The notes under the pieces were generated by a model. That model was not told where the DNA came from, did no database searches, and saw nothing but the letters and a program-made list of their open reading frames with translations. The position numbers were made by a program, and so were the translations under genes. From an uncultured bacterium (GTDB lineage Bacteria; Patescibacteriota; Minisyncoccia; Phycocordibacterales; UBA918), in NCBI GenBank assembly GCA_965652925.1, contig CBFGXL010000004.1, positions 358-64,357 on the forward strand: a stretch of DNA of 64,000 nt. The letters are read 5' to 3'. Shown here in pieces: positions 11,574 to 60,403 of the stretch (its first letter is position 1; each line of letters begins with the position of its first letter).

Positions 11574-11640
11574 GGTCACGAATTACTAAGGATTATTCGT
11601 CGTAAACTCCTCAAATCCTAAGTACTCTCGACCCCGCCTC
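11574..11640. repeat. tRNA-associated intergenic repeat, copy A
   Basis: Sequence is GGTCACGAATTACTAAG-N-CTAAGTACTCTCGACCCCGCCTC. It is homologous to the copies at 29261/29313, 53423 and 60350. Confidence 0.8.
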
Positions 11641-11966
11641 ACTTGTTCGCAGGCTCACAGCGCTCCGGCTATCACAACGGCACGCAAGCGACGCAGGTCG
11701 CTTGCTAGAACAAAAAAGACCCCAGCTCTTGCTGAGGTCTTTTTTGTTCTGCCGTTGTGAACATCATCGAGCCAATTCTCGAATGCCAAAACGGCAAATT
11801 AGGCAGCCTTTTCAGGACGACGATGATGAGGTGAAGCACCCTGAGCTACACGCATACATACGATTTTGCCATCAGAGCTACATGCGGATGAAGCGTGAAG
11901 GCTCGTGGCCATGGACCAGAAATAAATCTGATTGTGACGAGTGGTGAGGAGCTGCGTAGAGAGAAC

Positions 11967-12494
11967 TTATTTCTTAAGACTATCAAATAGACGAATAAGC
12001 TCCTTTGAGAACTTATTCAATTCTTTAGTACTTATCAATGGTCTAACATACGGAAGAGGCTTATTAAACTTGGGTGGTATCTTAAATCCGAGTAATCGGA
12101 GGATTTTTTTCGATAGAGCTACACCGTCCTTGTATGTTGCTTGAGCCTCTTTCATCAATGCTTCTATTGATTCATAGTGAAGAGTATTGTGGATAATTTT
12201 ATTGCGTCGTGCGTTATAGGTTACCAACTCAGCAACAATAGATGGCTTTCCCCCCAACAGTTCATAAAATGAAATCAGCTGCGAGAATTTGGCATCGCCG
12301 TCCCAGTATTTCTTATGGGTTTTCTTCCGCTTACCTACAAAGGTGGTAATTAGCAATCTCAACATCATCTCGAGGGATGCCGTCTGCAGAACTAGGGCTT
12401 CAATATGGTCACCATTCACTTCGCTAGCCATTCTGGCCTTTAATCTAACGAGGCTAATAGTGTCCTTGCTGAGTTTGTTCCAGTAATTGGCCAT
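11967..12494 (-). CDS. Hypothetical protein with HEPN-like Rx4-6H motif
   Basis: ORF starts ~50 nt after the tRNA-Glu 3' end with no terminator between. Contains NARRNKIIHNTLHY, which fits the Rx4-6H HEPN signature. Start taken at MANYWNKL. Confidence 0.4.
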   Translation of the reverse strand: MANYWNKLSKDTISLVRLKARMASEVNGDHIEALVLQTASLEMMLRLLITTFVGKRKKTHKKYWDGDAKFSQLISFYELLGGKPSIVAELVTYNARRNKIIHNTLHYESIEALMKEAQATYKDGVALSKKILRLLGFKIPPKFNKPLPYVRPLISTKELNKFSKELIRLFDSLKK

Positions 12495-12541
12495 AAAGAT
12501 TGGCAGACAGCTAGGCTGCCCGAGTTGCCAGACTGGCAAGT

Positions 12542-12613
12542 GTGATCCCACGGAGAATCGAACTCCGGTTTCCAGGATGAAAACCTGGCGTCCTAGCCGC
12601 TAGACGATGGGAC
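12542..12613 (-). tRNA. tRNA-Glu (anticodon TTC)
   Basis: Manual fold: GGTCCCA acceptor stem, D-arm GTCTAGCGGCTAGGAC, anticodon stem CCAGG/CCTGG with loop TTTTCAT, T-arm CGGAG TTCGATT CTCCG. Close to a canonical bacterial tRNA-Glu. Confidence 0.85.
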
Positions 12614-12690
12614 CGCATATACGCTGAAGGTGTATTCAAACGTGCGCCATATAGTAACAAAAAAACTGGAAAATGCTAGGGTATATTTCC

Positions 12691-14586
12691 CTACGGCTGG
12701 GCCATTATTTTCTCCGATTTGACGAACTCTATAACGTTCTGGTTGTGGTCTATGGTAAACAATACCCCTTTGGTGGTGCCGTTTTTGAGCATCAGCTCGC
12801 TTGCCTCTTCCACGGTCGTATACAACGCGACATTCCGATGAGCGCAGAGGATGACTACCGACGATATGATGTCATTGAAACGGTCCGGGTCAGCGGGGAT
12901 AAGGAATGCAACCTCATCATCTGCAGTGCGCTCCCGAATGACATCCCCCAAATTGCAATATTCAAAACGGTCGGCAGTCACACGTGTTCGGAGGTCGAGG
13001 GCATAGATAGTGAGTGACCCTGCAATAATGACAAAAAACAGAAACGCTGACGTTATACGTATGAGCGTCTGTTTAGGGGTCTTAAGAAGCCACAGCTTGT
13101 ATAAGCATAGTGGGATAATAATGCAGAACAGAGGAACTGTTTTGAGTACAGAATAGAAGTGTATCTCAAACGCAGACCAATCAAGAAACACCAGGTGATG
13201 GAGCACTACCGGCAATGCAAAGAAATAGAGCACCGGATACGCGAAGCGCAATGACGTGATAGAATCCTCTTTTGCCTTTCTCCCGCCAAACCAAAGCAGT
13301 GCGGCAAACAGAACAAGGGACATCAGCAACGGACTGAACCATTTAAGGTAATTTTTTCCGAGTGCAATGAGCAATTGCGAAACACTTCCCGCTTCGCTTT
13401 CTTCAGGCACATACCCGTTTAGATAACGATCGGTCATCACCGATAAAAATGAACCAGTATCCGAAACCGACGCATACTGGAGGACTGTTGCAGTGAGCAC
13501 CACTATAGGAATAATTATGCTCATGAGCAAAAGCGGCAATGCGAATCGCTCTCTTCTGCGAATGAACGCATAGAAAAAAAGAGCTGCACATATGAACAGG
13601 CCAATCCACTCACTGTATACGGTCAGCGCAAGTGTAAGCGCAAGTGCAATATATTCTCTATGCAAAACTTCTTTTCTAGAAGTAATGATCGTATAGAAAA
13701 GATACCCGGCAAGAACAAACAATACTTGAACAAACATATCCGACATGTAGTTCACCGTATGCATATAGAGAGATATGCCCGTAAACAAATATAAACAAAA
13801 GCCGATCAGCCCTACATACACATTCTTGGTCATCCTATACAAGAGGAGCAAGAGGATGCTGGCAGTTGCTATCTGAACAAGGACGTTAAAGATGCGTAAC
13901 CCGACAACATTTGGCTCAAATCCAGACGCAGCAAAAAGTGCATATGGAGCAATGTATGCAAAGGGCGGGTAGGAAACATAGTAATAGTCGCCTGCATCAT
14001 TGCTGTATCCCATCCTATCCACTTCGATCGAAGAATGGTTGTTTATGTGCTTATTGCTTTCTCCAGGATACGTCACTGGAGGTACAAAGTGATGTGTCAA
14101 TCCTCCATCCTCGTGCCATATTTCCAGATGCCGAAGCACGGTTGCGGTGTGCCATTCATAATCGAACGCACGAGGTGTCACAATTGATTCCCACCTGATG
14201 CCCAGAGAAAAAAGCGTCACCACGACGCCAGACGCAGCAAAAAGTGCATATGGAGCAATGTATGCAAAGGGCGGGTAGGAAACATAGTAATAGTCGCCTG
14301 CATCATTGCTGTATCCCATCCTATCCACTTCGATCGAAGAATGGTTGTTTATGTGCTTATTGCTTTCTCCAGGATACGTCACTGGAGGTACAAAGTGATG
14401 TGTCAATCCTCCATCCTCGTGCCATATTTCCAGATGCCGAAGCACGGTTGCGGTGTGCCATTCATAATCGAACGCACGAGGTGTCACAATTGATTCCCAC
14501 CTGATGCCCAGAGAAAAAAGCGTCACCACGACGCAAATGCCCAACACAATCGCATTATTTCTCTTCATGATAGTCCTCTTCTGCAT
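12691..14586 (-). CDS. Polytopic membrane glycosyltransferase (GT-C fold, ArnT/PMT-like) with an internal 102-aa perfect tandem duplication
   Basis: About 14 predicted TM helices. The N-terminal loop [15 protein letters not shown] resembles the GT39/GT83 loop motif. Residues 19-120 are repeated exactly as 121-222. Confidence 0.5.
13917..14533. repeat. Perfect 306-bp direct tandem duplication (2 units) inside the glycosyltransferase CDS
   Basis: Unit 13922-14227 is identical to 14228-14533, with a CAAAT microhomology at the junctions. The two antisense track ORFs 13911-14198 and 14244-14504 encode identical peptides because of it. Confidence 0.95.
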
Positions 14587-16120
14587 TTATATCCCAGACT
14601 TTTTCCTTCGGATAGTTTCCCAAGATTGATTCCACCGAAGCCATTGCAGTCAGCATGGAATGATCCTGATTATTGTAACGGTGCATACCGTTTCGACCAA
14701 TGGGATAGAGGTTGGCAATGCCGTTGAGGTACCGCTTCACAATATCAAAATCCTTATATACGCCCGAATACACCGGGTAGGCTTTCGGTACTTTTTCAAC
14801 ATGATAGGCCAGGGCCTGATGCTTCGAGAGACCTATGTGCTCAAGCTCTTTCGATGCAAGTGCACCGAGGTCCTCCTCTGACATCCTCCAGAGCGGATCG
14901 GTATCATTGCAAAAATATTCCATACCAAGCACCTGGGCATTGGGTGACTGCACCATATATGGGCTCCAGTTACGAAACAGCTGGATGCGCCCTACCTGTA
15001 CTTCAGGATCATGGATGTAAATCCAGTTGTCCGTGAGTTTGAGTAGCTCTGCATCCTCCACGAGCACACCTATGGTGACAAAATCCCGAAATGTGAGGTG
15101 TTGCGCAACAGCAGAGACCTCTTGTGGTGGTGCCTGCGTGAACGCTGCAAACAGTTCAGTAATGGGCATTGTTGAAAAAAAATAGTCTGCCTCCAGCATG
15201 TGTTCTTCTCCCGTTTCAGTATCCCGATACGTTACTGCACGAACCCGCTCGTTGTTATTCTCAATTTTTATCACTTCAGCATTTGTTACGATCGATCCAC
15301 CTTTCTCTTCTATGGTACGAGCAACCACCTCCCACAGATGTCCAGGGCCGTATTTAGGATAAAGAAAATATTCGATAAGTGACGTTTCGACATTCTTCTG
15401 ACTGATGTTCGCTTTACGAAACAAACGCAGTATGCTGTTCTGAACAGCTTTCCATACGGAAAGACTCTTTACACGCTGCCTTCCCCAGTCAGCTCCCAAA
15501 TCTGTACAACGCAGTCCCCACACTTTTTCAGTGTATGTCTTAAAAAACGTCAGATACAGTTCATACCCAAAACGATTGATGAAAAAATCCTCCAAATTCT
15601 TCTCTTCTCTAGGAAAAAGAAGAGAATGTACATAACTCGTTCCTATTTTGAGCATCTTCACCACACCCAGATTCGAGAGTGTCTTCCATGAAAGCTCAAC
15701 AGGATATTCATAGAATTTCCCGCCATAGAATATGCGTGATCTCCTTTTGCGCACAAGCATGACATCTTCATCATTGTCATGGATTGCAGAGGATGGGCGC
15801 TCAAGAACATGCGTTCTGTTTTGATATGAGAGTGCTATATGCTCATCACTTCCTTTTTCAAGTGGCAGCACATCAAGCCACCATGAGACAACCTTGTCAG
15901 ACTTTGAGAAAAAACGATGCCCTCCAATATCCATTCTGTTTTCCCCAAACTGCACTGTCCGAGAAATACCGCCAAGATGCCGGCTTTTCTCAAGGATAAT
16001 GGGTTGAATATCCGTGTGACGGAGAAGTTCTAGCGCCGCAGTGAGTCCCGCGGGTCCAGCCCCGATGATCACTGCCTTTTTTGTTTTCGGTGTTTGTTCA
16101 GTCATTGGCTGTGGAGACAT
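14555..16120 (-). CDS. FAD/NAD(P)-binding oxidoreductase (amine-oxidase/UDP-galactopyranose-mutase-like Rossmann fold)
   Basis: [17 protein letters not shown]...[13 protein letters not shown] dinucleotide-binding motif. About 520 aa. Start uncertain (MSPQP at 16120 or MTEQ at 16105). It overlaps the GT-C gene start by ~30 nt. Confidence 0.6.
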
Positions 16121-16154
16121 GCGTGCATTGTATGCTCTAGTATATACTATCTGC

Positions 16155-16547
16155 ATGACCAGAATGTTGCGCTCGTTTATCGTCTTTTGCTTTGTCGGCG
16201 CCATTAGTTCCCTCATAGATCTCGGCATTTTGTATATGCTTGTTGAATACTTCGAGTTTTCTGTATATCTAGCAGCCACGCTCTCTTTTACCCTTTCATC
16301 GCTCAATGGCTACACCCTCAATAAACTCATCACTTTCAGAGACACTTCTCTGAGCGTCAAACGCCAATATATCTCTTATGTGTTAGTCAATCTCATTGGA
16401 CTCGGGCTTACGCTTATGCTCCTCTTCCTCTTTATAAATACTTTTGGGCTCTACTATATGCATGCTAAGATACTCACCCTTGCTATCGTCGTCCTTTGGA
16501 ATTTCGGAGGCAGCAGGACTTTTGTATTCAAAAATAGAACACACTGA
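16155..16547 (+). CDS. GtrA-family membrane protein (polyprenyl-linked sugar translocation-associated)
   Basis: About 130 aa with four TM helices and a [21 protein letters not shown]...[11 protein letters not shown] pattern typical of GtrA. Start taken at MTRML. Confidence 0.6.
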
Positions 16548-16550
16548 CAT

Positions 16551-17300
16551 ATGAAAATCGTATCGCTCAATATCGAGGGATCAAAGCATGTAAACCGGGT
16601 TATCCCTTTTCTTGAAGCTGAACAAGCTGATGTTATATGCCTTCAGGAAGCACAGCTCGATCTCCATCCTTATCTTGAAAAAGCTGGATACACATTTCAT
16701 GTGCTTCCCATGACTTTGCGCACTGACGATTCACATTTGAATGAACCAGAAGGACTCCTTTTGGCAACTCGTCATGAGACAACGTTTGATTCCTTCTATT
16801 ATCATATGCCCGAAGAAGGCATCCAGCCATTTATCAAAGCCGCATGGAGAGACACCTGCGCTTATGGAGTGTTGTTTGCGGATGTAACCTTTCAAGGAAA
16901 GCTATTCAGGATCGGAACTACGCATTTTACCTGGACCCCAGACGGTATGCCCAATAGCGAACAGGACGCTGACGCAGATGCGCTTTTCTCGTTTCTCCGC
17001 ACACAAAAGCCGCATGTGATCTGTGGGGATTTCAACATACCTCGTCTGCACAATTATAATTATAAGCGCCTTACAGAACTGTACACCGATGCTATTCCCA
17101 CGAACTATACAAGCAGTCTTGACCGCACACTCCATCGATGCGGGAAGGATGCACAACGGTCTATTATGTTTGACGAATACATGGTGGATTACCTCTGCAC
17201 CCAGACACCATACACAGCCTCAGATGTGCGTTTACAGTTTGGCATCAGCGACCACGCAGGCATTGTCGCAACCCTTCACTCCGACCTCACTCGACCGTAA
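16551..17300 (+). CDS. Endonuclease/exonuclease/phosphatase (EEP) family protein
   Basis: MKIVSLNIEG...DVICLQEA N-terminal motif and C-terminal SDHAGI motif of the EEP fold. Confidence 0.7.
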   Translation: MKIVSLNIEGSKHVNRVIPFLEAEQADVICLQEAQLDLHPYLEKAGYTFHVLPMTLRTDDSHLNEPEGLLLATRHETTFDSFYYHMPEEGIQPFIKAAWRDTCAYGVLFADVTFQGKLFRIGTTHFTWTPDGMPNSEQDADADALFSFLRTQKPHVICGDFNIPRLHNYNYKRLTELYTDAIPTNYTSSLDRTLHRCGKDAQRSIMFDEYMVDYLCTQTPYTASDVRLQFGISDHAGIVATLHSDLTRP

Positions 17301-19101
17301 CAGATTTTGCCAGATTACGCGGGCGGTCTACATTTAAACCGCGTGCAATGCCTACGTAATATGCAAATAGGTGCAATGGTACTGTCGAGACAATCGGCTG
17401 AATGATCGGATGTACTTTTGGCATATAAATGATATCTGTTGCAAGTGACGCCAGGTGGGAATCACCAAGTGTGCCGAAAGCAAGAACCGGCGCTTTTCTA
17501 GCTCTGACCTCTTCAATGTTTGAAATCATCTTTTCATAGACATCATCCTGCGGACAAAGAGCAACAACAGGAAAATCAGCATCAAGCATGGCAATCGGCC
17601 CATGTTTAAGCTCGCCGCCGGCATACGCTTCTGCATGAATATATGCAACCTCTTTCAGTTTAAGAGATCCCTCATAAGCAATTGGCGTATGGAATTTTCT
17701 TCCAATGAAAATCATATCCCGCGACGAAGCGTACTTCTGGGCAATGCGTTTTATCTCTTCAGACTGTTTGAGTACACTGCGAAGAACTTCAGGCAAGCTC
17801 TGAAGCGCCTCTGCGATCTCTATTCCTTCTTCTTGCCTCATGCCTCGCTCACGTCCAATAAGAAGCGTCAAAAGCGCGAAGACAGCAAGCTGCGAGATGA
17901 ATGCCTTGGTTGAGGCAACAGCAACCTCGGGACCAGCGTGGTTATATACTCCAGCATGTGTCTCACGTGCGATGGTCGACCCGACAGAGTTTATGATGCC
18001 GAGGGTTAACAAACCTTGTTTCTGTGCAGACCGGATCGAAGCAAGCGTGTCAGCGGTCTCACCAGACTGCGAGACAGCAAGAACTGCGCTTTTTTTATCT
18101 GGCAAATTGCGTTTGTAACGGTACTCACTTGCCAACTCAACCTCTGTGGGCAGACCAGCATACTCTTCAAGAAGATATCGGCCTACAAGTCCTGCATAAT
18201 AGGCAGAACCGCAGCCCACGATCTGCAGGCGATTGAGCACAGAAAGCTTATCAAGTACCGTTTCAAGACCGCCAAGCTTCGCCCTCCCTTTATCCATAAG
18301 AAGCCTGCCTCGGATCGTATTTTCAATAACCTCAGGTGCCTCAAAAATCTCTTTGATCATGAAGTGGTCATACCCCTCTTTCTGTGCCGCCTCAAAATCC
18401 CACGCAACCTTTTGCGGAGTTTTTTGTCGTGCCTCCCCCGAAAGCGAACTGATGCTGTACGAGTCTTTGGTAATGACCGCAACTTCTCCGTCATCTAGGT
18501 ACACAACATCCTTCGTGTGGGACACCAGAGCTGATGGATCAGATGAAACAAAATGTCCATCCGTGCCGATGCCGAGCACAATAGGGCTACCCATGCGCCC
18601 AATAACAATCACTCCCGGCTCATGCTCGCTCATTACGGCAAGACCATACGTACCGCGGACCATGCGCAACGCTTCCAAGACCGCACTCTTGAGATCGCCC
18701 TTATAGAGGGTGCCTATGAGTTTAGCGAGCACCTCGGTGTCGGTATCAGACTCAAACGAAATGCCCTGCGCAAGAAGTCCTTCCTTCAATGCGCGGTAGT
18801 TTTCTATGATTCCATTGTGGACGATCCATATCTGTCCGCTGGCATCATGATGCGGGTGTGCATTCTTTTCAGTCGGTTCTCCGTGTGTTGCCCAACGCGT
18901 GTGCGCAATACCAGAAGTGCCGCCGATGGTTTCAGTGATGCTTGCCACAAGATTGTCTATAGGACCAACTGACTTCACCACACCATATCCCGGAACAAAT
19001 ATCCCCGCAGAGTCGTATCCGCGATATTCGAGTGTCCGCAATCCTTCAATTAAAAGAGGTTCTGCTGTCCGCTGTCCCACATATCCGAAAATACCACACA
19101 T
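17287..19101 (-). CDS. glmS: Glutamine--fructose-6-phosphate aminotransferase
   Basis: N-terminal MCGIFGY Ntn amidotransferase, two SIS domains, and the conserved C-terminus ...NVDRPRNLAKSVTVE. Confidence 0.95.
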   Translation of the reverse strand: MCGIFGYVGQRTAEPLLIEGLRTLEYRGYDSAGIFVPGYGVVKSVGPIDNLVASITETIGGTSGIAHTRWATHGEPTEKNAHPHHDASGQIWIVHNGIIENYRALKEGLLAQGISFESDTDTEVLAKLIGTLYKGDLKSAVLEALRMVRGTYGLAVMSEHEPGVIVIGRMGSPIVLGIGTDGHFVSSDPSALVSHTKDVVYLDDGEVAVITKDSYSISSLSGEARQKTPQKVAWDFEAAQKEGYDHFMIKEIFEAPEVIENTIRGRLLMDKGRAKLGGLETVLDKLSVLNRLQIVGCGSAYYAGLVGRYLLEEYAGLPTEVELASEYRYKRNLPDKKSAVLAVSQSGETADTLASIRSAQKQGLLTLGIINSVGSTIARETHAGVYNHAGPEVAVASTKAFISQLAVFALLTLLIGRERGMRQEEGIEIAEALQSLPEVLRSVLKQSEEIKRIAQKYASSRDMIFIGRKFHTPIAYEGSLKLKEVAYIHAEAYAGGELKHGPIAMLDADFPVVALCPQDDVYEKMISNIEEVRARKAPVLAFGTLGDSHLASLATDIIYMPKVHPIIQPIVSTVPLHLFAYYVGIARGLNVDRPRNLAKSVTVE

Positions 19102-19163
19102 ATTTTTTTCTATTATCTGTTTCTTTATGATACTACGGCAACCTGAGATTGGTTACTTATAGA

Positions 19164-21547: not shown

Positions 21548-21559
21548 CTGAGTACTGTA

Positions 21560-22797: not shown

Positions 22798-22870
22798 GCG
22801 CGGTTAGCTCAGCTGGTAGAGCATCACATTGACATTGTGGGGGTCACAGGTTCAAGTCCTGTATCGCGCA
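22798..22870 (+). tRNA. tRNA-Val (anticodon GAC)
   Basis: Manual cloverleaf: acceptor GCGCGGT/ATCGCGC, D-arm GCTCAGCTGGTAGAGC, anticodon loop TTGACAT, T-arm ACAGG TTCAAGT CCTGT. CCA not encoded. Confidence 0.85.
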
Positions 22871-22931
22871 CAAACGGGGCACCCTAATGGGTGCCTTTGC
22901 CGTTTGTGCGCGATACAGGACTTGAACGGCG
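22871..22931 (+). terminator. tRNA-Val trailer: hairpin terminator plus inverted copy of the tRNA 3' end
   Basis: Hairpin caaacggggcaccc taat gggtgcctttgccgtttg, then tgcgcgatacaggacttgaacgg. The latter is a perfect ~28-nt inverted repeat of the tRNA 3' end gttcaagtcctgtatcgcgca. Confidence 0.6.
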
Positions 22932-23074
22932 GAGCGATGTGAGTGAAGCGAACCAGCGAGCCGTGTCCCGCGGCACTTATGAACGGATGCGAATTAGTGA
23001 CCATCAGGACAAGTCCTAGAGAAGACTTATATGAATCAAGTCCATTCTTTTCTTTAAATGCTATACTTCCCCAC

Positions 23075-23929
23075 ATGGAAAACCTTAAGAAAATAGTGGT
23101 CATCTACCATGACCAATGCCGCGACGGTTTTGGCGCGGCATACGCAGCCTGGAAGAAGTTCGGTGATGACGCAAGCTACATCCCTCGCAAGACACAGGAC
23201 CCTGCCCCAGAAGGACTGCAAGACAAGGATATTTTCATTGTCGACTACAGCTACAAGAAACCTGTACTTGAGGATCTACAAAAGAACAACAGATCAGTTG
23301 TCGTCATTGATCACCATGAAACTGCAAAAGAAGCGGTACAGTCATTTAAAGAAAATGTCTTCGACATGGGACACTCTGGTGCAGTGCTTGCCTGGAAGTA
23401 TTTCCATCCAAAAACCGAAGTGCCAAAACTCCTCCTTTATATTGAGGACCATGATCTCTGGAAATTTGAAATGGAGTTCAACCGCGAATTCGGCGCAGCG
23501 CTTGGAGAGTACAACCAGGACTTTGAGACATGGGATCAGCTGAATAAAAATCTCGAAGACAGAGAACACTTCAACAAGTTCATATCGCACGGAGCAACCA
23601 TTGCCGGATTTGAAGATAAGCTGGTGCAAAAACTCGTTTCATTCAAGGAGAAAGTGCTTTTTGAAGGACATGAGATCTTCGCCGTGAACTGTTCCCGAAT
23701 ATATCGATCAATTGTTGCACACGAGCTTTCCAACCTCAACGGAAAAGAAGGCGGCCTAGAAATGGCGATCGTCTACTACCGGTACGATGGACAAGTACAC
23801 TGTTCACTTCGCAGCAATGGAGACGTCGACGTGCGGGCAATGGCAGAGAAATACGGCGGAGGAGGACACAAAAACGCTGCAAGCATTCGCGTTGCCTCAT
23901 TTGAGGAACTGCCATTCACTTTTCTTTAA
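23075..23929 (+). CDS. DHH/DHHA1 family phosphoesterase (NrnA-like)
   Basis: DHH motif region (HDQCRDGFGAAYA, DHHE) and C-terminal DHHA1 GGGH motif (GGGGHKNAASIRV). Start taken at MENLKK. Confidence 0.7.
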   Translation: MENLKKIVVIYHDQCRDGFGAAYAAWKKFGDDASYIPRKTQDPAPEGLQDKDIFIVDYSYKKPVLEDLQKNNRSVVVIDHHETAKEAVQSFKENVFDMGHSGAVLAWKYFHPKTEVPKLLLYIEDHDLWKFEMEFNREFGAALGEYNQDFETWDQLNKNLEDREHFNKFISHGATIAGFEDKLVQKLVSFKEKVLFEGHEIFAVNCSRIYRSIVAHELSNLNGKEGGLEMAIVYYRYDGQVHCSLRSNGDVDVRAMAEKYGGGGHKNAASIRVASFEELPFTFL

Positions 23930-29221: not shown

Positions 29222-29260
29222 GAGAAGTAGGATAGCACAAACTATTGCCGAGGTCAGGTT

Positions 29261-29400
29261 CGGTCACAAGTTACTAAATCAAGACCAGGCTCGTCCTGAC
29301 GGTCTTTACTTATGGTCACGAATCACTAAGTATATTTGTTCGCATTCGCTCCAAATCTACTAAGTCAGGCTCGTCCTGACGGTCTCTAAGCTCGCAAGCT
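29261..29400. repeat. tRNA-associated intergenic repeat, copies D' and D (tandem, with degenerate tRNA-Phe T-arm copies)
   Basis: GGTCACAAGTTACTAA... at 29261 and GGTCACGAATCACTAAG... at 29313. Each is followed by CAGGCTCGTCCTGACGGTCT, which is similar to the tRNA-Phe 3' end GTCAGGCTCGAACTGACGACC. Confidence 0.75.
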
Positions 29401-29491
29401 CGCTAAGAGCCGCGGGACACGCCTCACTCGCCTAGCGGCATCGTTCCGGCGTTCGAGCCTGACCTCACTGTGCGCAGGCACAGTGCTCTCT

Positions 29492-29537
29492 GAGCACAAA
29501 TGAAAACAGCCCCTCGGGGCTGTTTTCATTTGTGCTC
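29492..29537 (-). terminator. tRNA-Phe trailer hairpin (22-bp stem) incorporating the tRNA 3' acceptor nucleotides
   Basis: Perfect palindrome gagcacaaatgaaaacagcccc-tcg-gggctgttttcatttgtgctc. It overlaps the 3' end of tRNA-Phe. Confidence 0.6.
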
Positions 29538-29605
29538 AGAGTCAGGCTCGAACTGACGACCCTTCCCTCTTCAGGGGAATGCTCTACCAACTGAGCTATC
29601 TGAGC
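29531..29605 (-). tRNA. tRNA-Phe (anticodon GAA)
   Basis: Manual fold: acceptor GCTCAGA/TCTGAGC, D-arm GCTCAGTTGGTAGAGC, anticodon stem-loop TTCCC CTGAAGA GGGAA, T-arm GTCAG TTCGAGC CTGAC. Confidence 0.85.
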
Positions 29606-30104: not shown

Positions 30105-30235
30105 CCCGTATAAAAAGGACCAGTTTCACACTGGTCTTTTTTATATGGGCTTAAGGAATCGAAGAGGCTGACTAGTCTCTTACAAATGAAAATGACCCTT
30201 AGGTGGGTCATTTTCAATGCCAAACAATGTCTTGC

Positions 30236-53267: not shown

Positions 53268-53422
53268 AATTTTCTTGATTTAATTGAAGCTTTTACTCAG
53301 CCTCCTTACTGAGCAATATATACCCGAATAAAGCTTAACTATTTCCAAGCAACGAATTTGGGTTTTCGTCAAAAATTTGTACCCTGAGCTTCGAGTGCTT
53401 GGTGCAAAGCCTCCCAGGATTC

Positions 53423-53489
53423 GGTCACGAGTTACTAAGCCTTTTGCTCCAAGCGTTCACAAAAGTCTAAGTACTCTCGACCCCGGCTC
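53423..53489. repeat. tRNA-associated intergenic repeat, copy B
   Basis: GGTCACGAGTTACTAAG-N26-CTAAGTACTCTCGACCCCGGCTC. It is followed at 53527-53541 by an inverted copy (ttcgagtccttgtac) of the tRNA-Gln 3' end. Confidence 0.8.
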
Positions 53490-53549
53490 GCAGGCCCAGA
53501 GGGTTCCCTGCTCCGCCTTTCGAGTCCTTGTACTCCGAGCAACGGCAAA

Positions 53550-53577
53550 GGCCGCAAACACTCACGTGTTTGCGGCC
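53550..53577 (-). terminator. Hairpin terminator downstream of tRNA-Gln
   Basis: ggccgcaaacac-tcac-gtgtttgcggcc, a 12-bp stem. Confidence 0.55.
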
Positions 53578-53586
53578 TGCCGATTG

Positions 53587-53657
53587 CTGGGGTACAAGGA
53601 CTCGAACCTCGATACTCAGGACCAAAACCTGATGTCCTACCATTAGACGATACCCCA
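53587..53657 (-). tRNA. tRNA-Gln (anticodon TTG)
   Basis: Sense strand TGGGGTATCGTCTAATGGTAGGACATCAGGTTTTGGTCCTGAGTATCGAGGTTCGAGTCCTTGTACCCCAG. U1-A72 and the TGGGGTA...TACCCCAG ends match bacterial tRNA-Gln. Confidence 0.85.
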
Positions 53658-53675
53658 ATATGCATCTGTACTGCA

Positions 53676-53810
53676 GCGTCAATACTCAGGACCATTTCAT
53701 TACATGAACGGTTCAGGTTGTCGCTCTTTCTTCCAAAAAGAGCTGGCAACCTCCTTCAAGACTCCCCCGGACTCTTGAAGCCTGATGTCCTGCCATGAGA
53801 CGATACCCCA
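53676..53810 (-). pseudogene. Degenerate tRNA-Gln-like fragments (pseudo-tRNA / possible integration-site remnant)
   Basis: On the minus strand, GGGGTATCGTCTCATGGCAGGACATCAGG (near-copy of the tRNA-Gln 5' half) is followed by a ~60-nt insert containing a hairpin, and then GGTCCTGAGTATTGACG (copy of the anticodon 3' stem/variable region). There is no intact T-arm. Confidence 0.5.
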
Positions 53811-53918
53811 AGTGCAAGCGCAATACTAACGCACTGACACCACTATTTCAACCGGACTTCATGCGTTCTTCGGGGTCTGTCTGGTACACTATTTTCATTA
53901 ACATTAAGCACGAGCACT

Positions 53919-54281: not shown

Positions 54282-54334
54282 CTCCATGGCCTCAACAAAA
54301 ATGCCGGCACAGCGCCGGCATTTTTTGTTTTTCT

Positions 54335-54622: not shown

Positions 54623-54682
54623 AAATTTCTAGTATACACCGCTGCTGTACAATTGCCTCCATTTTTGGAGTAAAATTACAGG

Positions 54683-55567
54683 GTGAGTTTGCTCAATCAG
54701 ACCAACCTCGAATTTATAAGGGAAAAGCTTTTCTCCTTCCCTATTGCCCTTTCGATTCTTTTACTGCTGCCGCCATTGGGCGTTGGGGACGCATACCTTA
54801 TTCTCGGGCACGCGCATTTTATGATGACTGCCTTGTACCAATACAAGATGGGCAGAATCACAAAATGGAGTATCGTTGCATATATCGGGCTTTTTGCACT
54901 CTTGTTCTTTATCGCTTACGAGATACCACAGGCTTTTACGCTCTTTGTTGCGATATCACTCTTGTTCCATGTATACCGAGGCGAGGCGCGGCACATTAAA
55001 AAGCCTTTTAGTCTGCCTTATCTTTTCATGACCTTGGGCATAGGCGCTCTTATTGGGACATGGCTCTCAGTTGAACTCTGGCAATTGGCCATCAACCCGC
55101 TGATCCCGCTTGTCTCTTCTGCGCTTTTGGTATTACTTGCGATCTATTTTTTCATACGCGAGCAAGGCAAGCAGGTAGAGCTTTTGTTTTACACCCTCGT
55201 TGTACTCTATCTCGTGTTCGTCTCTCTGGAATTTCTCGGCCTGCGGCCTTCTGGACTCCAAAGTTTCGGCTTTATTGTTATTGGTCATTATATGGCGACG
55301 TATTTCAACGTCTACCATAGCTTCACCCGCAAAGGTGAGGGCCGGCAGTGGATCTTTGTTTTAGAAAGTTTTGCTATGAATCTTCTCTTTCTGGCGGGCT
55401 ACCTATTTGTCTTCAATTTCCTTGGTACCGATAACGCCCTTTATGACTATGTCTACAACCCTATCTCATTCTATGTATGGACGCTCATGCACTTCATCAC
55501 GACCATGGATTTCAAAAAGTACAAAGAGCAAGTACTTGCGTATGCCCATGCGCGAAAAGGAGCGTGA
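54683..55567 (+). CDS. Hypothetical polytopic membrane protein
   Basis: 294 aa with 8 or more predicted TM helices. No family recognised. Confidence 0.4.
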   Translation: MSLLNQTNLEFIREKLFSFPIALSILLLLPPLGVGDAYLILGHAHFMMTALYQYKMGRITKWSIVAYIGLFALLFFIAYEIPQAFTLFVAISLLFHVYRGEARHIKKPFSLPYLFMTLGIGALIGTWLSVELWQLAINPLIPLVSSALLVLLAIYFFIREQGKQVELLFYTLVVLYLVFVSLEFLGLRPSGLQSFGFIVIGHYMATYFNVYHSFTRKGEGRQWIFVLESFAMNLLFLAGYLFVFNFLGTDNALYDYVYNPISFYVWTLMHFITTMDFKKYKEQVLAYAHARKGA

Positions 55568-55568
55568 A

Positions 55569-57230
55569 CTATTTTGATTCGTAAGCTGCCTTCACAAATG
55601 CAGTAAACAGCGGATGTGGGTCCAACGGACGCGCGTGAAACTCTGGATGGAACTGCACACCCACGAAAAACGGATGCACATCCTTCGGAAGCTCCGAGAT
55701 CTCCATCAGGCGGTTGTCAGGAGACTTCCCTGAGAACACCCAGCCGGAGGCTTCAAGCTGGTCAATATACGCTGGGTTAACTTCATAGCGGTGGCGGTGG
55801 CGCTCACTGATCTCCTCTTTGCCGTACGCTTTTGCTGCGATTGAGCCTTTCTTCAAAAGCGCAGGGTATTCCCCGAGTCGCATGGTGCCGCCCATCTGCG
55901 ACTTCGCAATCTTCTCCTTCTGGTCAGGCATGACGTCGATAACCAAATGCTGTGCAGATGGCTCTATCTCGGCAGTTGAGACACTCTTGAGCTTAAGGAC
56001 GTTCTTTGCGTATTCCAAAACTGCAAGCTGCATGCCGTAGCAGATGCCGAAGTATGGGATCTTGTTCTTGCGGATGTACTCGATGACATTGAGCTTGCCG
56101 TCAATGCCAGTTGAACCAAAGCCTCCAGGAATAAGGATGCCGTCGAACGCCTTAAGCTCTTTGAGGTTCTTCTTGTCTGCAAAGCGCTGTGCGGGCAGAT
56201 AGGTGATAACCGGCTTCAAGCCAAGCTTGTACGTAGAGTACTTGATCGCCTCAAGGACCGAGATGTATACGTCCGAAAGGATGAAATCTCCTGAGTTGAA
56301 ATATTTGCCTACAACGGCGATCTTCACGGTGTCCTTGCCGTTCTTGGACTTTGCCACAAACTTCTTCCACTCCTCGAGGTTGGACTTCTTCTTCGGAAGA
56401 CCAAGGAGATCGCATAAACGGGCTGAGAGATCGTCTTTCTCGAAATTGACCGGCACGTCATACACGCTCGCAACGTCAGGAGCGGAGATAACGTGCTCAG
56501 GCTTCACGTTGCAGAACTGCGCGATCTTCTCTTTGCGCTTCTGATCAATAGGTACCGGAGCGCGTGCAAGGATGAAATCAGCGAAAACGCCGGCGCTATT
56601 AAGCGTACGTGATGCGTGCTGGGTGGGCTTGGTCTTCATCTCACCGATAGAGCCGGGGACCGGCAAGTAGCTTACCATCACAACAGCAACACCATTTGGA
56701 GTCTGTGACTTCATCATACGTACTGCCTCAAGGAAGAGGATGTTCTCGTATTCACCAATAGTGCCGCCTATCTCCACAATGACCACGTCCGCATGCGCGT
56801 GCTCCCCCGCTTTCTTGATGCGGGAAATGACCTCAAGCGGCACGTCCGGCACCACCTGCACATTCTTGCCTTTGTATTCAAGGTTGCGTTCTTTTTTGAT
56901 GACAGAGCTGTATACGCTTCCGGTGGTCATGTAGTTGATGTCCGGGATATCAACATTGAGGAAACGCTCATAGTTTCCCATATCCTGATCGGTCTCAAGG
57001 CCACCCTGCAAAACAAAAACCTCGCCGTGCTCGGTGGGGTTCATGGTGCCTGCGTCGACGTTGATGTAGGGGTCGATCTTCATGGCGGTTACGATGAGTC
57101 CCCGCGCCTGCAGTATCTTTGCAATTGATGATGATGCAACACCCTTTCCCACTCCCGACATAACACCGCCGACGACAAAGATGTATTTAGTTGTACTGGA
57201 TTTCTTTGATGCTGATTTCTTGCTTGCCAT
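55569..57230 (-). CDS. pyrG: CTP synthase
   Basis: N-terminal synthetase domain KYIFVVGGVMSGVGKG and C-terminal GATase with catalytic Cys in GICYGMQ. Confidence 0.95.
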   Translation of the reverse strand: MASKKSASKKSSTTKYIFVVGGVMSGVGKGVASSSIAKILQARGLIVTAMKIDPYINVDAGTMNPTEHGEVFVLQGGLETDQDMGNYERFLNVDIPDINYMTTGSVYSSVIKKERNLEYKGKNVQVVPDVPLEVISRIKKAGEHAHADVVIVEIGGTIGEYENILFLEAVRMMKSQTPNGVAVVMVSYLPVPGSIGEMKTKPTQHASRTLNSAGVFADFILARAPVPIDQKRKEKIAQFCNVKPEHVISAPDVASVYDVPVNFEKDDLSARLCDLLGLPKKKSNLEEWKKFVAKSKNGKDTVKIAVVGKYFNSGDFILSDVYISVLEAIKYSTYKLGLKPVITYLPAQRFADKKNLKELKAFDGILIPGGFGSTGIDGKLNVIEYIRKNKIPYFGICYGMQLAVLEYAKNVLKLKSVSTAEIEPSAQHLVIDVMPDQKEKIAKSQMGGTMRLGEYPALLKKGSIAAKAYGKEEISERHRHRYEVNPAYIDQLEASGWVFSGKSPDNRLMEISELPKDVHPFFVGVQFHPEFHARPLDPHPLFTAFVKAAYESK

Positions 57231-57250
57231 TGATTACAAATTACTATTTC

Positions 57251-58171
57251 CTAAACGTGCAGATACCTCGCGACGGCAAGTATGCTCGATGCCATGCCGA
57301 GCACAATGCCTGACCCCACGATAATGCCGAATATCCGTGCAAAATCTGAGACGAAATATTCAAAGAGATTGAACTGGAAGAAGGCCTGTGTCTCTGGTCC
57401 GATCCATAACACAAGCGGGTACAAGATAAGGAGCGCCAGCACGCCTGCTACCACGCCATACATGATCCCCTGCAGCATAAATGGCCCACGGATGAAGGTG
57501 TTGCTCGCTCCCACAAGACGCATAACCGCAATTTCTTCGCGGGAAGTGTAGATTGCCAGCCGGATAGTATTGAACGTGATCAGCACTGACGCAGAGACAA
57601 GTACGATCATCGTCACCCATGTCGAGCGCTCAACAGCACTGATGATGCTCGTGAGCTTATCAATCGCCTCCTTATTCTTCACGAAGTTGACTTCATCGAT
57701 AATCGGCTTCTGCGGATCCTCCGATGCCTGCTGATCACTTAAGAACTGAGCGATGCCCTCGTACTGCGAAGTCTCTTTTGCGCGGATAGACAGTGACGCA
57801 CCGAGCGGGTTGTCGCCAAGCTCCTCAAGTCCCTGCATGATTGTTTCATCGTTTTGATGACGCTCACTAAACTGTGCGAGTGCTTCTTCACGCGAGGTGA
57901 ATGTCACTTCTGCCACGTCCGGCAGCGCCTCAAGCGAAGATCGAAGCGCGTCTATGTCCGATTGCTCAGCGGTAGTAACAAAATAAACATTGATATCAAC
58001 TTTGCTTTGAATATTCTCAAGTGAAACAGCAAGCAGTTTATCAATCATCATTGTGGAACCGACCACAAACAGAGCGACAGTCATCACAAAAATGGCGGCA
58101 ATGGAAACAAACGCATTGCGCCAGAACCCCACAAAACCTGATCGTATTACGCGCTTGGTAGCTGTCCACAT
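57251..58171 (-). CDS. ftsX: Cell division permease-like protein FtsX
   Basis: Topology of N-terminal TM, large periplasmic loop and three C-terminal TM helices. It lies directly downstream of ftsE. Confidence 0.85.
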   Translation of the reverse strand: MWTATKRVIRSGFVGFWRNAFVSIAAIFVMTVALFVVGSTMMIDKLLAVSLENIQSKVDINVYFVTTAEQSDIDALRSSLEALPDVAEVTFTSREEALAQFSERHQNDETIMQGLEELGDNPLGASLSIRAKETSQYEGIAQFLSDQQASEDPQKPIIDEVNFVKNKEAIDKLTSIISAVERSTWVTMIVLVSASVLITFNTIRLAIYTSREEIAVMRLVGASNTFIRGPFMLQGIMYGVVAGVLALLILYPLVLWIGPETQAFFQFNLFEYFVSDFARIFGIIVGSGIVLGMASSILAVARYLHV

Positions 58172-58200
58172 AAAAAATAAATACTTGAAATTATCCCCTT

Positions 58201-58881
58201 TTACAAAACATATTTCCCTTCCTGGTCGTCGCGCACGATGCGTCCCTCATCCATGGTAATGACGCGTCGGCCGAGCTCATCAATGACCCCTTTGTTGTGC
58301 GTGGTCATAATGACTGTCGTGCCGAGGTCATTGATCTTTCTGAGGATCTGTACGACTTCGTAGGTAGCAATCGGGTCAAGATTGCCCGTAGGTTCATCGG
58401 CAATGATAATGTCCGGCTGGTTCACAATAGCCCGCGCGATCGCTACACGCTGTTTCTCTCCTCCTGAGAGCTCTCCAGGGAAATTCCAGATCTTATCCTC
58501 AAGATCAACCAGTGCCAAAGCCTGGGGCACATTCTCGCGAATCTCCTCGTCGCTACGGCCATTGGCTTCCATGGCGAACGCAATATTCTCATAAGCAGTC
58601 ATATGCGGGAGCAGCTTGAAATCCTGAAAGACGGTCCCGATCTTGCGGCGATATTTGGGAAGCTTTGTGCGAGGTATCTTGTGTATATCAAGCGACTCAA
58701 AAAAGACCTGCCCCTCTGTTGGCCTGTCTTCAGCAATAAGCATCTTCAGAAGCGTGGTCTTTCCTGCTCCTGAATGTCCCACAATAGAGACGAATTCTTT
58801 CGGGGCAACCTGAAACGATACACCTTGAAGTGCTATTGAACCTCCGTTGTACAGTTTCGATACATTATCGAAGTAGATCAT
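58201..58881 (-). CDS. ftsE: Cell division ATP-binding protein FtsE
   Basis: ABC ATPase motifs: Walker [10 protein letters not shown], signature [15 protein letters not shown], Walker [13 protein letters not shown]. 226 aa. Confidence 0.9.
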
Positions 58882-58972
58882 AAAAACAAAATGTTATGTA
58901 TTACCACCTTCCGTCCTTCCTGTACACGCAAAGATCCCTTGTGGTACTGCATCATAACTAACGCTTCCCATT

Positions 58973-59848
58973 TTACTTTAGTTCCGCACTCGCGTCTAGA
59001 AATAGCTGTATATCGCCATTCAAAACCGCGTCAATCTTTGCAGTTTCGGTGTTAGTTCGGTGGTCTTTTACCATCTGGTATGGATGGAGTACATAAGAGC
59101 GTATTTGGCTTCCCCACTCGATCTTGAGCGTTTTCTCAACAGAAAGTCCTTGCAGTTCCCGCTTGCGCTGTTCCTCATTGAACGCGAAGACCTTGCCGGC
59201 AAGAAGCGCCAGACCGCGCTCTTTGTTCTGCAACTGGCTGCGCTCGCTGGAGACATTGACGCTGATGTTTGTCGGTTTGTGCACAATACGCACTGCGGTT
59301 TCCCGCTTGTTGACGTTCTGTCCGCCGGCTCCGCCGGAGCGCGCAAAGCTCACCTCAATATCTTCTTCTGCAATGCCGATCTCGCCTGCGTTCGCCACTT
59401 TTGGCGACACTTCAACAAGTACAAATGAGGTCTGGCGTTTGCCATTGCTGTTAAATGGCGATATACGGACCAAACGGTGCACTCCTGATTCGTGCTGCAG
59501 CGTGCCGTACGCTTCACGGCCACCTATCTCAAAAGTGATATTGCGATAGCCGTTGTGGTCGTTCTGGTTGGAATCGATCTCCGACACACCCCATCCACGT
59601 TTTTCAGCGTATCTCTGATACATCTGAGTGAGCATGCGTGCGAAGTCTTCTGCGTCATCCCCTCCAGCTCCTGCAACAATAGTGACAATAGCATCATTGC
59701 GGTCGTACTTGCCCTTTCCTTCTTTGGCATCCTTCAGCTCCTCAAGCTCCTTGAACATAGCCTGTGCTTTCTGTGGGTCACTCCAAAAATCATTCTGCAG
59801 CATTGCATGTTCGATCTCGTCAATGCGTTTTTGAATATCTTCTTGCAT
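58973..59848 (-). CDS. prfB: Peptide chain release factor 2 (N-terminally short)
   Basis: SPF tripeptide ([15 protein letters not shown]) and GGQ motif ([11 protein letters not shown]). At 291 aa it is about 40 aa shorter at the N-terminus than the E. coli protein. Confidence 0.85.
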
Positions 59849-59850
59849 GA

Positions 59851-60273
59851 CTAAATCATTTTTCGATAATACTTCGTATCTCGTTCTTCATATCCTCTTT
59901 TTATATAGAGTGGCTGCACCGTAGGACGTGAGCATGTAAGTGCTATCTCATCTGCCCCCCACTGCCGTGCCTTCTTTTCGAGGGCCTCCATGATGGTCGT
60001 AAAATACCCACGACCGCGATACGATTCATCCACGACAATGTTGTTGATATAAGCGGTAATGTGTACCGGGTGCGTGAGGTAGCCAACCACCCCCAACCCT
60101 CGTAGGTGTCCGGCCTCAACAAGCCCAAGCATGTACGTCTGTTCGTCAGTGGCGGTGCGGCGCAAGAGATCCTCGTTCGGTGCTTCCCCTAGCTTTATGA
60201 GTTGCTTCTGCAAAGAAAGGCAGTCTTGCATTACGGAGTCGATATTTGTCTCAGTTATCTCAATGAGTTCCAT
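59851..60273 (-). CDS. GNAT family N-acetyltransferase
   Basis: Motif A region [22 protein letters not shown]. Start taken at MELIEITE. The longer track ORF runs into repeat copy C. Confidence 0.7.
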
Positions 60274-60349
60274 GCACAGTAGTCTAACAAAGCCGCCATG
60301 ATTGCGGAAGCAATCATGGCGGCTTTCAATCACAGGATTGGTCACGAGT

Positions 60350-60403
60350 TACTAAGCAAATTGTCGCAAGCTCCATTTTGCTAAGTACTCGCGACCCCGC
60401 CTC
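60350..60403. repeat. tRNA-associated intergenic repeat, copy C
   Basis: GGTCACGAGTTACTAAG-N23-CTAAGTACTCGCGACCCCGCCTC. It is followed by partial copies of the tRNA-Thr 3' end: ttcaatcctg at 60425 and 60601, and gagccaatgatcaggattgaa at 60506-60526. Confidence 0.8.

Follow-up and report, generated by a model that had tools for sequence, protein, structure and literature searches.

Williams is said to have distinguished, in 2002, classes of sublocation for integration in transfer RNA (tRNA) genes. A regenerated target gene accompanied by a displaced 3′ fragment marks site-specific integration into tRNA and transfer-messenger RNA (tmRNA) genes (PMC4383910, Islander), and group I introns occur in tRNA anticodon loops and tmRNA T-loops of Patescibacteria (PMC13011429, PMC11915505). 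Here we analyze a repeat that lies behind tRNA genes in 64,000 nt of DNA from an uncultured bacterium of the Patescibacteriota (contig CBFGXL010000004.1 of assembly GCA_965652925.1; this whole stretch is hereafter called the window). The repeat belongs to a module next to which the tRNA gene stays intact, with its old 3′ end pushed downstream. We propose that the repeat, named P3 below, is the terminal hairpin of a small gene-free element that has been inserted at a specific site in the 3′ portion of tRNA and tmRNA genes and is mobile now or was so formerly, a proposal that we judge to be evenly poised between right and wrong.

The repeat and its tRNA neighbors

An earlier note on this DNA had reported a repeat family at four loci, in which a conserved 17-mer and a conserved 23-mer enclose a spacer. 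The 17-mer corresponds to the left arm, GGTCACGARTTACTAAG, and the 23-mer to the right arm, CTAAGTACTCTCGACCCCGCCTC. On the plus strand the left arm is found at 11574, 29262 (two mismatches), 29314 (one mismatch), 53423 and 60340, five matches in the window compared with a mean of 0.13 in shuffled sequence, and the right arm at 11618, 53467 and 60381, three matches where 0 are expected. The repeat family is real, with two corrections to its extent: the fourth copy begins at 60340 and not at 60350, and the stretch 29261–29400, read earlier as two tandem copies, is a rearranged hairpin in which the left arm occurs twice, along with two T-arm-like inserts.

The repeat is an imperfect hairpin of ~60 nt (P3) of which both motifs are the arms, and it forms the 3′ end of a larger module. 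The supposed spacer with its GCTCCAAA core is variable, as had been stated, but it is no mere spacer; it is the tip of the hairpin, with a mini-stem that covaries between copies. ARAGORN places nine tRNAs in the window, four of them (Glu, Phe, Gln, Thr) on the minus strand, and every copy described earlier lies downstream of one of these four in the same orientation, in agreement with the note. The tRNA-to-hairpin distances at the four loci are, in ascending order and not in that of the tRNAs, 103, 148, 286 and 908 nt. Diverged modules at the plus-strand tRNA-Val and tRNA-Asp and a remnant at tRNA-Arg(cct) had been overlooked, and six of the nine window tRNAs carry a module or a remnant of one.

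Module layout and junctions

Read along the tRNA strand, the module has the order tRNA (...TTC|A) – t1 – A′ – spacer – P2 arm – GGG – P3 – A″. Here X is the tRNA 5′ part, A the tRNA 3′ part (the last 18 nt in the T-loop class), A′ the reverse complement of A, A″ a direct copy of the tRNA 3′ end at a displaced position, and t1 a terminator-like hairpin. The tRNA-Gln locus (locus 3) displays all parts:

53586..53657, minus strand: tRNA-Gln(ttg); A is the last 18 nt, 53586-53603, from T-loop position 57, after ...GGTTC
53550..53577, minus strand: t1, a terminator-like GC-rich hairpin then TTT, directly after the tRNA; missed by the strict terminator scan
53519..53540, minus strand: A′, reverse complement of the tRNA-Gln 3′ part; ends ...GGACTC|GAA and crosses the 56|57 junction by 3 nt
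53484..53518, minus strand: linker and P2 arm, A-GGC-GGAGC-(variable hairpin)-TGCGAG-CCG
53423..53482, minus strand: P3, an 80-bit covariance-model match; ends ...CUCGUGACC at the junction
53410..53422, minus strand: A″, adjoining P3; GAATCCTGGGAGG, a direct but degenerate copy of a tRNA 3′ part

In general form the linker and P2 region consists of a 1-nt spacer, GNC-GSAG-N1, a variable hairpin and M1-YGAG-GN′C, followed by GGG; the P2-arm pairs GNC/GN′C and N1/M1 covary across the module family. The 3′ end of P3 reads ...CUCGUGACC, with GTGACC abutting A″, and the right junction is an exact match between the element end (...GTGACC|GANTCC) and the tRNA (...GGTTC|GANTCC). The element measures ~150–250 nt and contains no protein gene. 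The direct repeats that flank it span 6–49 nt, being perfect over 18 nt in many loci and reaching 49 nt in locus L022 (L-numbers denote loci from the genome scan described below), and older copies are decayed in A′ and A″.

An inverted copy of the tRNA end (score ≥11) is found downstream of 61 of 168 tRNAs, versus 3 in the upstream control, and a direct copy downstream of 66 of the 168, versus 2. A terminator-like hairpin separates tRNA and core in at least 45 of 72 intervals, as counted by the strict scan, and in many loci A′ is interrupted by a CUGC-loop hairpin located exactly at the acceptor/T-stem boundary.

The bases that follow GTGACC tell three insertion-site classes apart: GA or AA (68 copies) marks T-loop position 56|57; AC (33 copies) marks 72|73, where the discriminator base follows acceptor position 72; and GC (10 copies) also marks 72|73, with tRNA-Trp. 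In all site classes A′ overruns the junction by exactly 3 nt (...ATTC|GAA, GT|GCC, GC|GGG), and the fourth nucleotide past the junction never pairs. The 3-nt overlap together with the 1-nt spacer is present in 40 of 40 modules with an exact A′ match, 21 others not being scorable.

Folding and covariation

The minus strand of P3, which is the tRNA strand at these loci, folds better (−20.6, −24.3 and −29.2 kcal/mol) than the plus strand (−13.6, −17.1 and −22.9 kcal/mol). For the covariation test, which the earlier note had suggested as a check for a conserved fold, 72 distinct P3 sequences were aligned to a structure that we proposed ourselves and compared with 500 shuffles, and covariation was found. 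Paired cells make up 89% of P3, as opposed to 77% in the shuffles and 27–42% in slid controls, and cells changed on both sides number 225 compared with 71 ± 7, a value reached by 0 of the 500 shuffles. U-A alternates with C-G (47 versus 24), and an A·G mismatch changes to C-G in coupling with a change of the adjacent G-C to G·U. One G·U pair is invariant in all 72 sequences. P3 also retains a bulged A, a U·U mismatch, an A·G mismatch and an invariant base (GGUCG.../...GUGACC), with a variable tip.

Pairing extends beyond P3. The N:N′ pair is GC in 31 cases, CG in 27, AT in 20, TA in 3 and mismatched in 2, and the N1:M1 pair is formed in 76 cases and mismatched in 3. The tips of P3 and P2 share the pattern GAG-C(N3)G-CGAA, again with a covarying mini-stem. 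The oligonucleotide d(GCGAAGC) forms a very stable DNA mini-hairpin, and GCGNAGC, which matches its form, has a density of 3.9 per kb in modules versus 0.33 per kb in the background, almost only on the tRNA-sense strand. This last is the functional strand, because the G·U pairs would be A·C on the other one.

These results indicate that the core folds as a single strand and is not a binding site in duplex DNA. The overall shape is a three-way junction of P1 (A′ paired with A″ or A), the P2 arm and P3, at which the conserved unpaired nucleotides cluster; the insertion point lies at the branch, with the 3′ end of P3 on one side and P1 on the other.

Distribution across genomes

The pattern GGTCACNNNTNACTAA-N19-39-TAAGTNCTCNCGAC was scanned in one genome per species, which yielded at least 120 loci on which the counts given here rest; the genomes are represented only by 8-kb loci. 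This genome-wide search, proposed in the earlier note, bore out the tRNA association, most loci lying behind same-strand tRNAs. The loci are labelled almost exclusively as Patescibacteria (Saccharibacteria, Paceibacterota/Parcubacteria, Yonath-, Kaiser- and Nomurabacteria, Minisyncoccia). Copies were oriented by their better-folding strand before positions relative to tRNAs were counted. Among the matches listed, 88 of ~123 copies follow a same-strand tRNA at a distance of 81–312 nt (mode 80–140 nt), and none of the ~123 oriented copies has an opposite-strand tRNA in the upstream position. The tRNA partners span almost every isotype (~19 isotypes). A hidden Markov model survey detects the hairpin within 400 nt downstream of 109 of 190 tRNAs in the sampled loci, and a tmRNA precedes the copy in five confirmed loci.

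Some copies have no upstream tRNA: an ftsZ stop codon precedes three, in different genomes, and rpsI precedes one. In the three ftsZ-linked copies the short closing helix covaries (GGCAC/GTGCC versus GGTAC/GTACC).

Locus L019 (JBLHQB010000003.1) has three modules of the candidate phyla radiation (CPR) type behind tRNA-Trp and is labelled as a metagenome-assembled genome of Patiriisocius (Flavobacteriia); it is probably mis-binned.

The element is absent from Rfam 15, the families of which include tRNA-like elements, ribozymes, group I introns, Y RNA, HEARO and ROOL/GOLLD, and we found no description of it in the searchable literature. In a scan of the whole window against Rfam 15 only tRNAs reach the gathering threshold, with no Intron_gpI match, and at E ≤ 10 the regions 53350-53700 and 62440-62730 return only tRNA and chance hairpin matches. 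The two-arm pattern has no match in a viral contig collection, nor has the whole module, by BLAST, in phage and plasmid collections. Literature searches with exact sequences and by subject left the element undescribed and surfaced only group I introns and generic island papers.

Further core families

Among 79 tRNAs without an A-type hairpin, 30 still show A′ and/or A″. Variant types of P3 occur, one with GGGGTCGCGGAATTTTGGGAGCGACGGCGAACAAAATATCTGTGACC and another with a GUCC/GGAC base. In a further family, type C, the core looks unrelated and has the order A′-GAA, long hairpin, GUAC(Y)G, short UGUAA-loop hairpin and, directly after it, A″. The type C pattern lies behind a same-strand tRNA in 29 of 40 matches, A″ being a copy of that tRNA, and the type C core has no Rfam match. 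It occurs in the window at 60532-60673 (minus strand) and 62528-62682 (plus strand), and elsewhere in L015, L059, L061, L067, L074, L082, L089, L108 and L109. The several core families have one common layout.

At L089 (~1122-1794 of the re-oriented locus) an open reading frame (ORF) for a LAGLIDADG-type homing endonuclease (...ILGFLYADGN...) lies just downstream of the type C module of tRNA-Met.

Insertion history

At tRNA-Thr (locus 4) a serial insertion is preserved over 60321-60700, in the order type C module, perfect 19-nt tRNA end, old terminator, and A-type module with a degenerate A″:

60683..60756, minus strand: tRNA-Thr(ggt); A is 60683-60700
60532..60673, minus strand: young type C module adjoining tRNA-Thr, with the parts that follow
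60657-60673, minus strand: t1 of the type C module
60638-60649 and 60601-60613, minus strand: A′ of the type C module
60532-60600, minus strand: type C core, ending in the UGUAA-loop hairpin
60513..60531, minus strand: perfect 19-nt displaced tRNA-Thr 3′ end; bounds the type C module on the right; formerly the gene's 3′ end
60398..60512, minus strand: upstream parts of the older A-type module, with the terminator at 60472-60512 and a hairpin at 60439-60460
60426-60438, minus strand: A′ of the older module (GTTCAGGATTGAA), then linker and P2 arm at 60398-60425
60340..60396, minus strand: P3, a 72.6-bit covariance-model match with a fold z-score of −4.1
60321..60339, minus strand: A″ of the older module, a degenerate tRNA-Thr 3′ end (AATCCTGTGATTGAAAGCC), after P3

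This tRNA-Thr(ggt) (60683-60756, minus strand) is an ARAGORN call that stays below the Rfam tRNA gathering score in the whole-window scan, which reports eight of the nine tRNAs.

Tandem modules are found elsewhere in L015, L051, L071, L084 and L108. Filled and empty versions of a site can also be compared: the site between tRNA-Leu and miaA holds a module in L066 and none in L046, and the spacer downstream of ftsZ is filled with two modules in L015 and is empty in the window, whose ftsZ gene is 78% identical to that of L015 at the nucleotide level.

The history of tRNA-Glu (locus 1) is longer. Comparison with L015 assigns the locus 1 hairpin to an old 72|73-type module behind a displaced remnant of the tRNA-Glu end; since then the window has gained an insert with an ORF of ~175 aa, and L015 a T-loop module. 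The parts in the window are:

12542-12614, minus strand: tRNA-Glu, parted from the older locus 1 module by an insert of ~0.6–0.9 kb
11967..12494, minus strand: ORF of ~175 aa for a rare hypothetical protein, within the insert between tRNA-Glu and the older module
11635..11762, minus strand: rest of the 72|73-type module beyond P3, with the tRNA-Glu end remnant ...GTTCAC at 11757-11762
11708-11749, minus strand: t1
11684-11705, minus strand: CUGC-loop hairpin
11672-11682, minus strand: anti-trailer and A′
11635-11671, minus strand: linker and P2 arm
11574..11633, minus strand: P3, a 71-bit covariance-model match

The insert with the ORF 11967-12494 is absent from L015 and resembles a very small cargo island that uses the same target. 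The encoded protein has no Pfam family and 11 database relatives, all hypothetical.

One module of L015 appears composite. The tip of its tRNA-Glu module (4576-4627) is 92% identical to the tip at the tRNA-Phe locus of the window (29313-29365) and the rest of the module matches the tRNA-Glu locus of the window; modules look mosaic, as if copies had exchanged parts.

Other modules in the window

The remaining modules and remnants belong to tRNA-Phe (locus 2), tRNA-Val, tRNA-Asp and tRNA-Arg:

29532..29605, minus strand: tRNA-Phe(gaa); A is 29532-29549
29439..29531, minus strand: upstream parts of locus 2, with t1 at 29498-29531 and the linker at 29439-29451
29488-29497 and 29452-29465, minus strand: A′ of locus 2, split at the acceptor/T-stem boundary, with the CUGC-loop hairpin at 29466-29485 between
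29246..29384, minus strand: rearranged P3 of locus 2, a partial 28.6-bit covariance-model match, with the pieces that follow
29364-29384 and 29283-29304, minus strand: T-arm-like copies
29314-29363, minus strand: tip and 3′ arm
29262-29278, minus strand: second 3′ arm
29246-29261, minus strand: degenerate A″
22854..23026, plus strand: tRNA-Val(gac) module, a weak covariance-model match; A 22854-22871, t1 22876-22895, A′ 22906-22926, linker and P2 arm 22927-22963, variant P3 22964-23010 (ending AGGAC), A″ 23011-23026
62528..62682, plus strand: tRNA-Asp type C module; A 62528-62546, t1 62547-62588, A′ 62593-62607, core 62608-62670, A″ 62671-62682
30147..30164, plus strand: tRNA-Arg(cct) remnant, an inverted copy (A′) of the T-arm region without a recognisable core

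The listed ORF 22943-23929 (plus strand), with a GTG start at 22943, overlaps the tRNA-Val module; its true start is probably further downstream. The hairpins that resemble terminators in this lineage often have a CUGC tetraloop between A- and U-runs, as at 7944-7985 (plus strand, after ftsZ), 11684-11705 and 29466-29485, and CUGC may be the preferred terminator loop in these bacteria.

Two further observations concern other parts of the window. At 53778-53811 (minus strand), 153 nt upstream of the tRNA-Gln gene, lies a 34-nt copy of the 5′ half of that gene, 91% identical to 53625-53658 and followed by a hairpin, CTTCAAGA...TCTTGAAG (region 53740-53811); possible readings are a tRNA pseudogene, a split gene and, undetected by ARAGORN and Rfam, a tRNA that contains an intron. 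Inside a 631-aa ORF (12691-14586) with a weak PMT glycosyltransferase match, two tandem 300-nt copies reported as identical (13922-14221 and 14228-14527) are either an internal protein repeat or an assembly artefact.

A proposed site-specific insertion element and its alternatives

We favor site-specific insertion because of the serial insertions and of the filled and empty states of orthologous sites. Repeated insertion at one site would build the tandem series. With ~200 nt, no gene and no recombinase enriched nearby, such an element would depend on a trans-acting factor, presumably an enzyme encoded elsewhere; the 81–312 nt that separate tRNA and P3 in 88 loci leave no room for an integrase gene, and the ORFs in long tRNA-to-hairpin gaps (the hypothetical protein of the window, the LAGLIDADG protein of L089) are mutually unrelated. 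Each part of the element is self-complementary, and recognition might proceed via the folded strand, in which P3 and an A/A′ hairpin that mimics the duplex target, with the terminator at its tip, would be read in a manner akin to a folded single-stranded attP or attC. Single-stranded DNA is favored over RNA as the acting form, because a terminator usually stands before the core, no sigma-70-like promoter was found in loci 3 and 4, the two modules scanned, and GCGNAGC is enriched. By the 3-nt rule, A′ derives from the uninterrupted target (TTC then A), or was selected for pairing with it, and does not match a circular junction, which would read ACC then A. This rule is the least explained feature, and a guide would show the same in a reaction that is ribozyme-like or guide-dependent.

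Several observations count against this reading. Segment W of locus 1 (11657-11759, t1 through linker) is 83% identical over 103 nt to the L015 module, which exceeds the identity of ftsZ (78%) and of the next gene (65%) between window and L015, and P3 is intact in many copies with a decayed A″. The conservation of W, the persistence of P3 despite A″ decay and the covariation of the ftsZ copies together suggest that purifying selection acts on the modules where they stand; the terminators at least, and possibly P3 as well, seem to have a function for the host or as RNA, and not to be purely selfish. Exact-protein look-ups for strain-level presence or absence at loci 1, 2 and 4 returned identical gene spacing in every contig from other samples of the same population, and no excised form or circular junction was seen; several of these contigs end at a module, as expected for a repeat. 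Clustering of 519 neighboring ORFs gave only housekeeping families, with no recombinase or other enriched protein beside the copies and no enzyme identified. The copies that follow ftsZ and rpsI lie outside tRNA genes, and how A and A′ come to match each of ~19 isotypes has no account. Mismatches between A and A′ are of the G·U type in 22 cases and of the A·C type in 14, an excess that is not significant, and the G·U pairs and the co-orientation with the tRNA fit RNA equally well.

Another view, which we find doubtful, takes the module for a structured RNA that arises when transcription from the promoter of the tRNA or tmRNA reads through, either an intron-like or ribozyme element or a protein-binding or processing RNA that serves the host. 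As a ribozyme, it would use A′ as an internal guide resembling group I P1/P10, pairing with 3 nt on the 5′ side and at least 5–18 nt on the 3′ side, and the GUGACC 3′ end would be the reactive end at the three-way junction. The covariation, the invariant G·U pair, the better fold of the tRNA-sense strand, the strict co-orientation, the gathering of unpaired conserved nucleotides at the junction and the conservation in place of an old displaced module all suit an RNA; a guide that crosses the junction by exactly 3 nt in every site class fits a helix docked on a catalytic core, and group I introns are known in the tRNAs and tmRNA T-loops of Patescibacteria (PMC13011429, PMC11915505). Against it stand the canonical terminator, usually upstream of the core, the lack of an own promoter in loci 3 and 4, and the lack of an Rfam group I or ribozyme match even at E ≤ 10. 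The 3′ terminal base is C and not G, position −1 is C and not U, the core of ~110–130 nt is far below the size of a group I core, and the tRNA is intact without splicing; GCGNAGC mini-hairpins are moreover typical of DNA rather than RNA. A host function of another kind, in which the modules are palindromes like repetitive extragenic palindromes (REPs) and bacterial interspersed mosaic elements (BIMEs), or terminator/insulator cassettes, located where highly transcribed genes have their 3′ ends, and the tRNA-end copies are by-products, would account for modules behind tRNA, tmRNA, ftsZ and rpsI, for the terminator hairpins, of which t1 and the CUGC hairpins are conserved in place, and for contigs that break at the repeat, but it leaves unexplained the exact T-loop junction, the target copies in direct and inverted form and the 3-nt rule; P3 is without a U-tract and some orthologous sites are without a module, and we consider the explanation quite improbable. 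The earlier suggestion of a lineage-specific REP-like element is apt for a repeated, structured, extragenic hairpin, but only loosely, the hairpin being tied to tRNA and tmRNA 3′ ends.

A regenerated gene with a displaced 3′ fragment at T-loop and 3′-end sublocations is the classic signature of a tyrosine integrase (PMC4383910), and islands of that kind are known for tandem accretion; the modules might on these grounds be decayed scars of integrase-encoding islands or prophages, in which attL, attR and an arm fragment were left after deletion of the interior. That one architecture of ~200 nt recurs at ~90 independent loci and ~19 isotypes, that its core is a covarying fold conserved across classes, that no integrase is enriched nearby and no viral, phage or plasmid match was found, and that A′ and the 3-nt rule would have no role, make such an origin very unlikely. 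Least credible is the idea that the repeat serves the gene downstream as a shared promoter or operator. The position of each window copy 41–164 nt upstream of a minus-strand ORF speaks for it, and the claim that the repeat always precedes a same-strand gene holds to this extent in the window; it fails elsewhere: of the ORFs that follow 123 copies in other genomes, 61 share the strand of the copy and 45 lie on the other one and are convergent (45 of 106). Loci 3 and 4 have no sigma-70-like hexamer pair, the spacing between the arms varies, and strand-specific G·U pairing, one pair of it invariant, and covariation argue against a duplex operator. Of the three options raised in the earlier note, the promoter or operator is unsupported, and the small tRNA-targeting integrative element comes closest and is the best supported, the element lying between an intact tRNA and a displaced 3′ copy; the repeat itself, suggested to be a terminal inverted repeat or an att site, is instead a conserved internal hairpin that abuts the right-hand junction.

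Other candidates were rejected on their defining features. Snap-back synthesis of A″ is contradicted by the duplicated terminator of L022, which is a direct copy and not loop-inverted. A tRNA primer-binding site, a T-box and a Y RNA lack their defining features here, A′ being without a CCA complement; no conserved cores of hammerhead or hairpin ribozymes are present, and the sites have no bulges of an archaeal bulge-helix-bulge tRNA intron. A transposon guide RNA (TnpB/IscB omega RNA, IS110 bridge RNA) has no adjacent nuclease or recombinase.

It is possible, although we think it rather unlikely, that the element belongs to a new class, a self-guided, protein-free insertion element of ~200 nt (RNA or single-stranded DNA) whose A′ docks on the T-loops or acceptor ends of tRNAs or tmRNAs. 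The three-way-junction core would then set the GUGACC end exactly 3 bp from the helix end for strand joining, and the element would be a ‘harmless intron’, ribozyme-like or guided by structure, that supplies a copy of the 3′ exon itself and has colonised most CPR tRNA genes. That the mechanism is of a new kind, beyond known site-specific insertion at tRNA genes, is something we suggest only tentatively.

If the site-specific insertion reading is true, a large share of the tRNA and tmRNA genes in a bacterial superphylum carry an uncatalogued structured element, which would account for the breaking of contigs of these genomes at tRNA loci. The element would be an annotation marker for tRNA and tmRNA 3′ ends, and for pseudo-3′-ends that can be mistaken for island att sites, and it would offer a compact, sequence-programmable system in which insertion at one defined nucleotide could be tested with no protein gene alongside. 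For biochemistry, the 3-nt rule and the target mimic provide concrete starting points.

Comparison with known systems

The ends of the element differ from each other (A/terminator versus P3) and its direct repeats range from 6 to 49 nt, so that it has neither the terminal inverted repeats nor the fixed-length target-site duplication of miniature inverted-repeat transposable elements. Cis-mobilizable elements, which integrative conjugative elements leave behind at tRNA genes, are likewise flanked by att sites and without recombination genes of their own, and can undergo tandem accretion; they are, however, decay products of kilobase size and not a structured 200-nt family that extends through a superphylum. 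The palindrome-associated transposable elements, non-autonomous derivatives of IS200/IS605, and the REPs and BIMEs are non-coding, have hairpins at both ends, strand-specific structure and no terminal inverted repeats, and insert 3′ of a short defined sequence. In contrast to these, the present element is flanked by long direct target repeats, has a target-specific left hairpin and is associated with tRNA T-loops; its tRNA specificity and target copies are atypical of REPs.

In its folding the element recalls the integron attC site and the attP(+) site of CTX phage, which are imperfect strand-specific hairpins with conserved paired boxes, bulged or mismatched bases and a variable tip. CTX attP(+) offers a second likeness, in that two inverted target copies, here A and A′, can fold into a mimic of the duplex target. 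Unlike attC, P3 has no RYYYAAC/GTTRRRY box at its base and no intI-linked array, and unlike CTX attP, the element has a target other than dif and no known recombinase. Group I introns share with it the host lineage, the tmRNA loop and a guide that pairs on both sides of the insertion point (P1/P10). The differences are the missing group I core by Rfam, the terminal C where the rule is G, the C at −1 where the rule is U, and the copy of the 3′ exon that the element carries itself and by which no splicing is needed.

Compared with islands in tRNA and tmRNA genes, the element is small (150–250 nt), without integrase and without cargo, it holds an inverted target copy inside, its conserved part is a covarying single-strand fold, and dozens of tRNA genes per genome appear occupied. 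It nevertheless has with these islands in common that the target is regenerated by sequence borne on the element and a displaced 3′ fragment marks the far end, that crossover falls at the T-loop and acceptor 3′-end sublocations, that tmRNA genes are used, and that insertions accrete in tandem.

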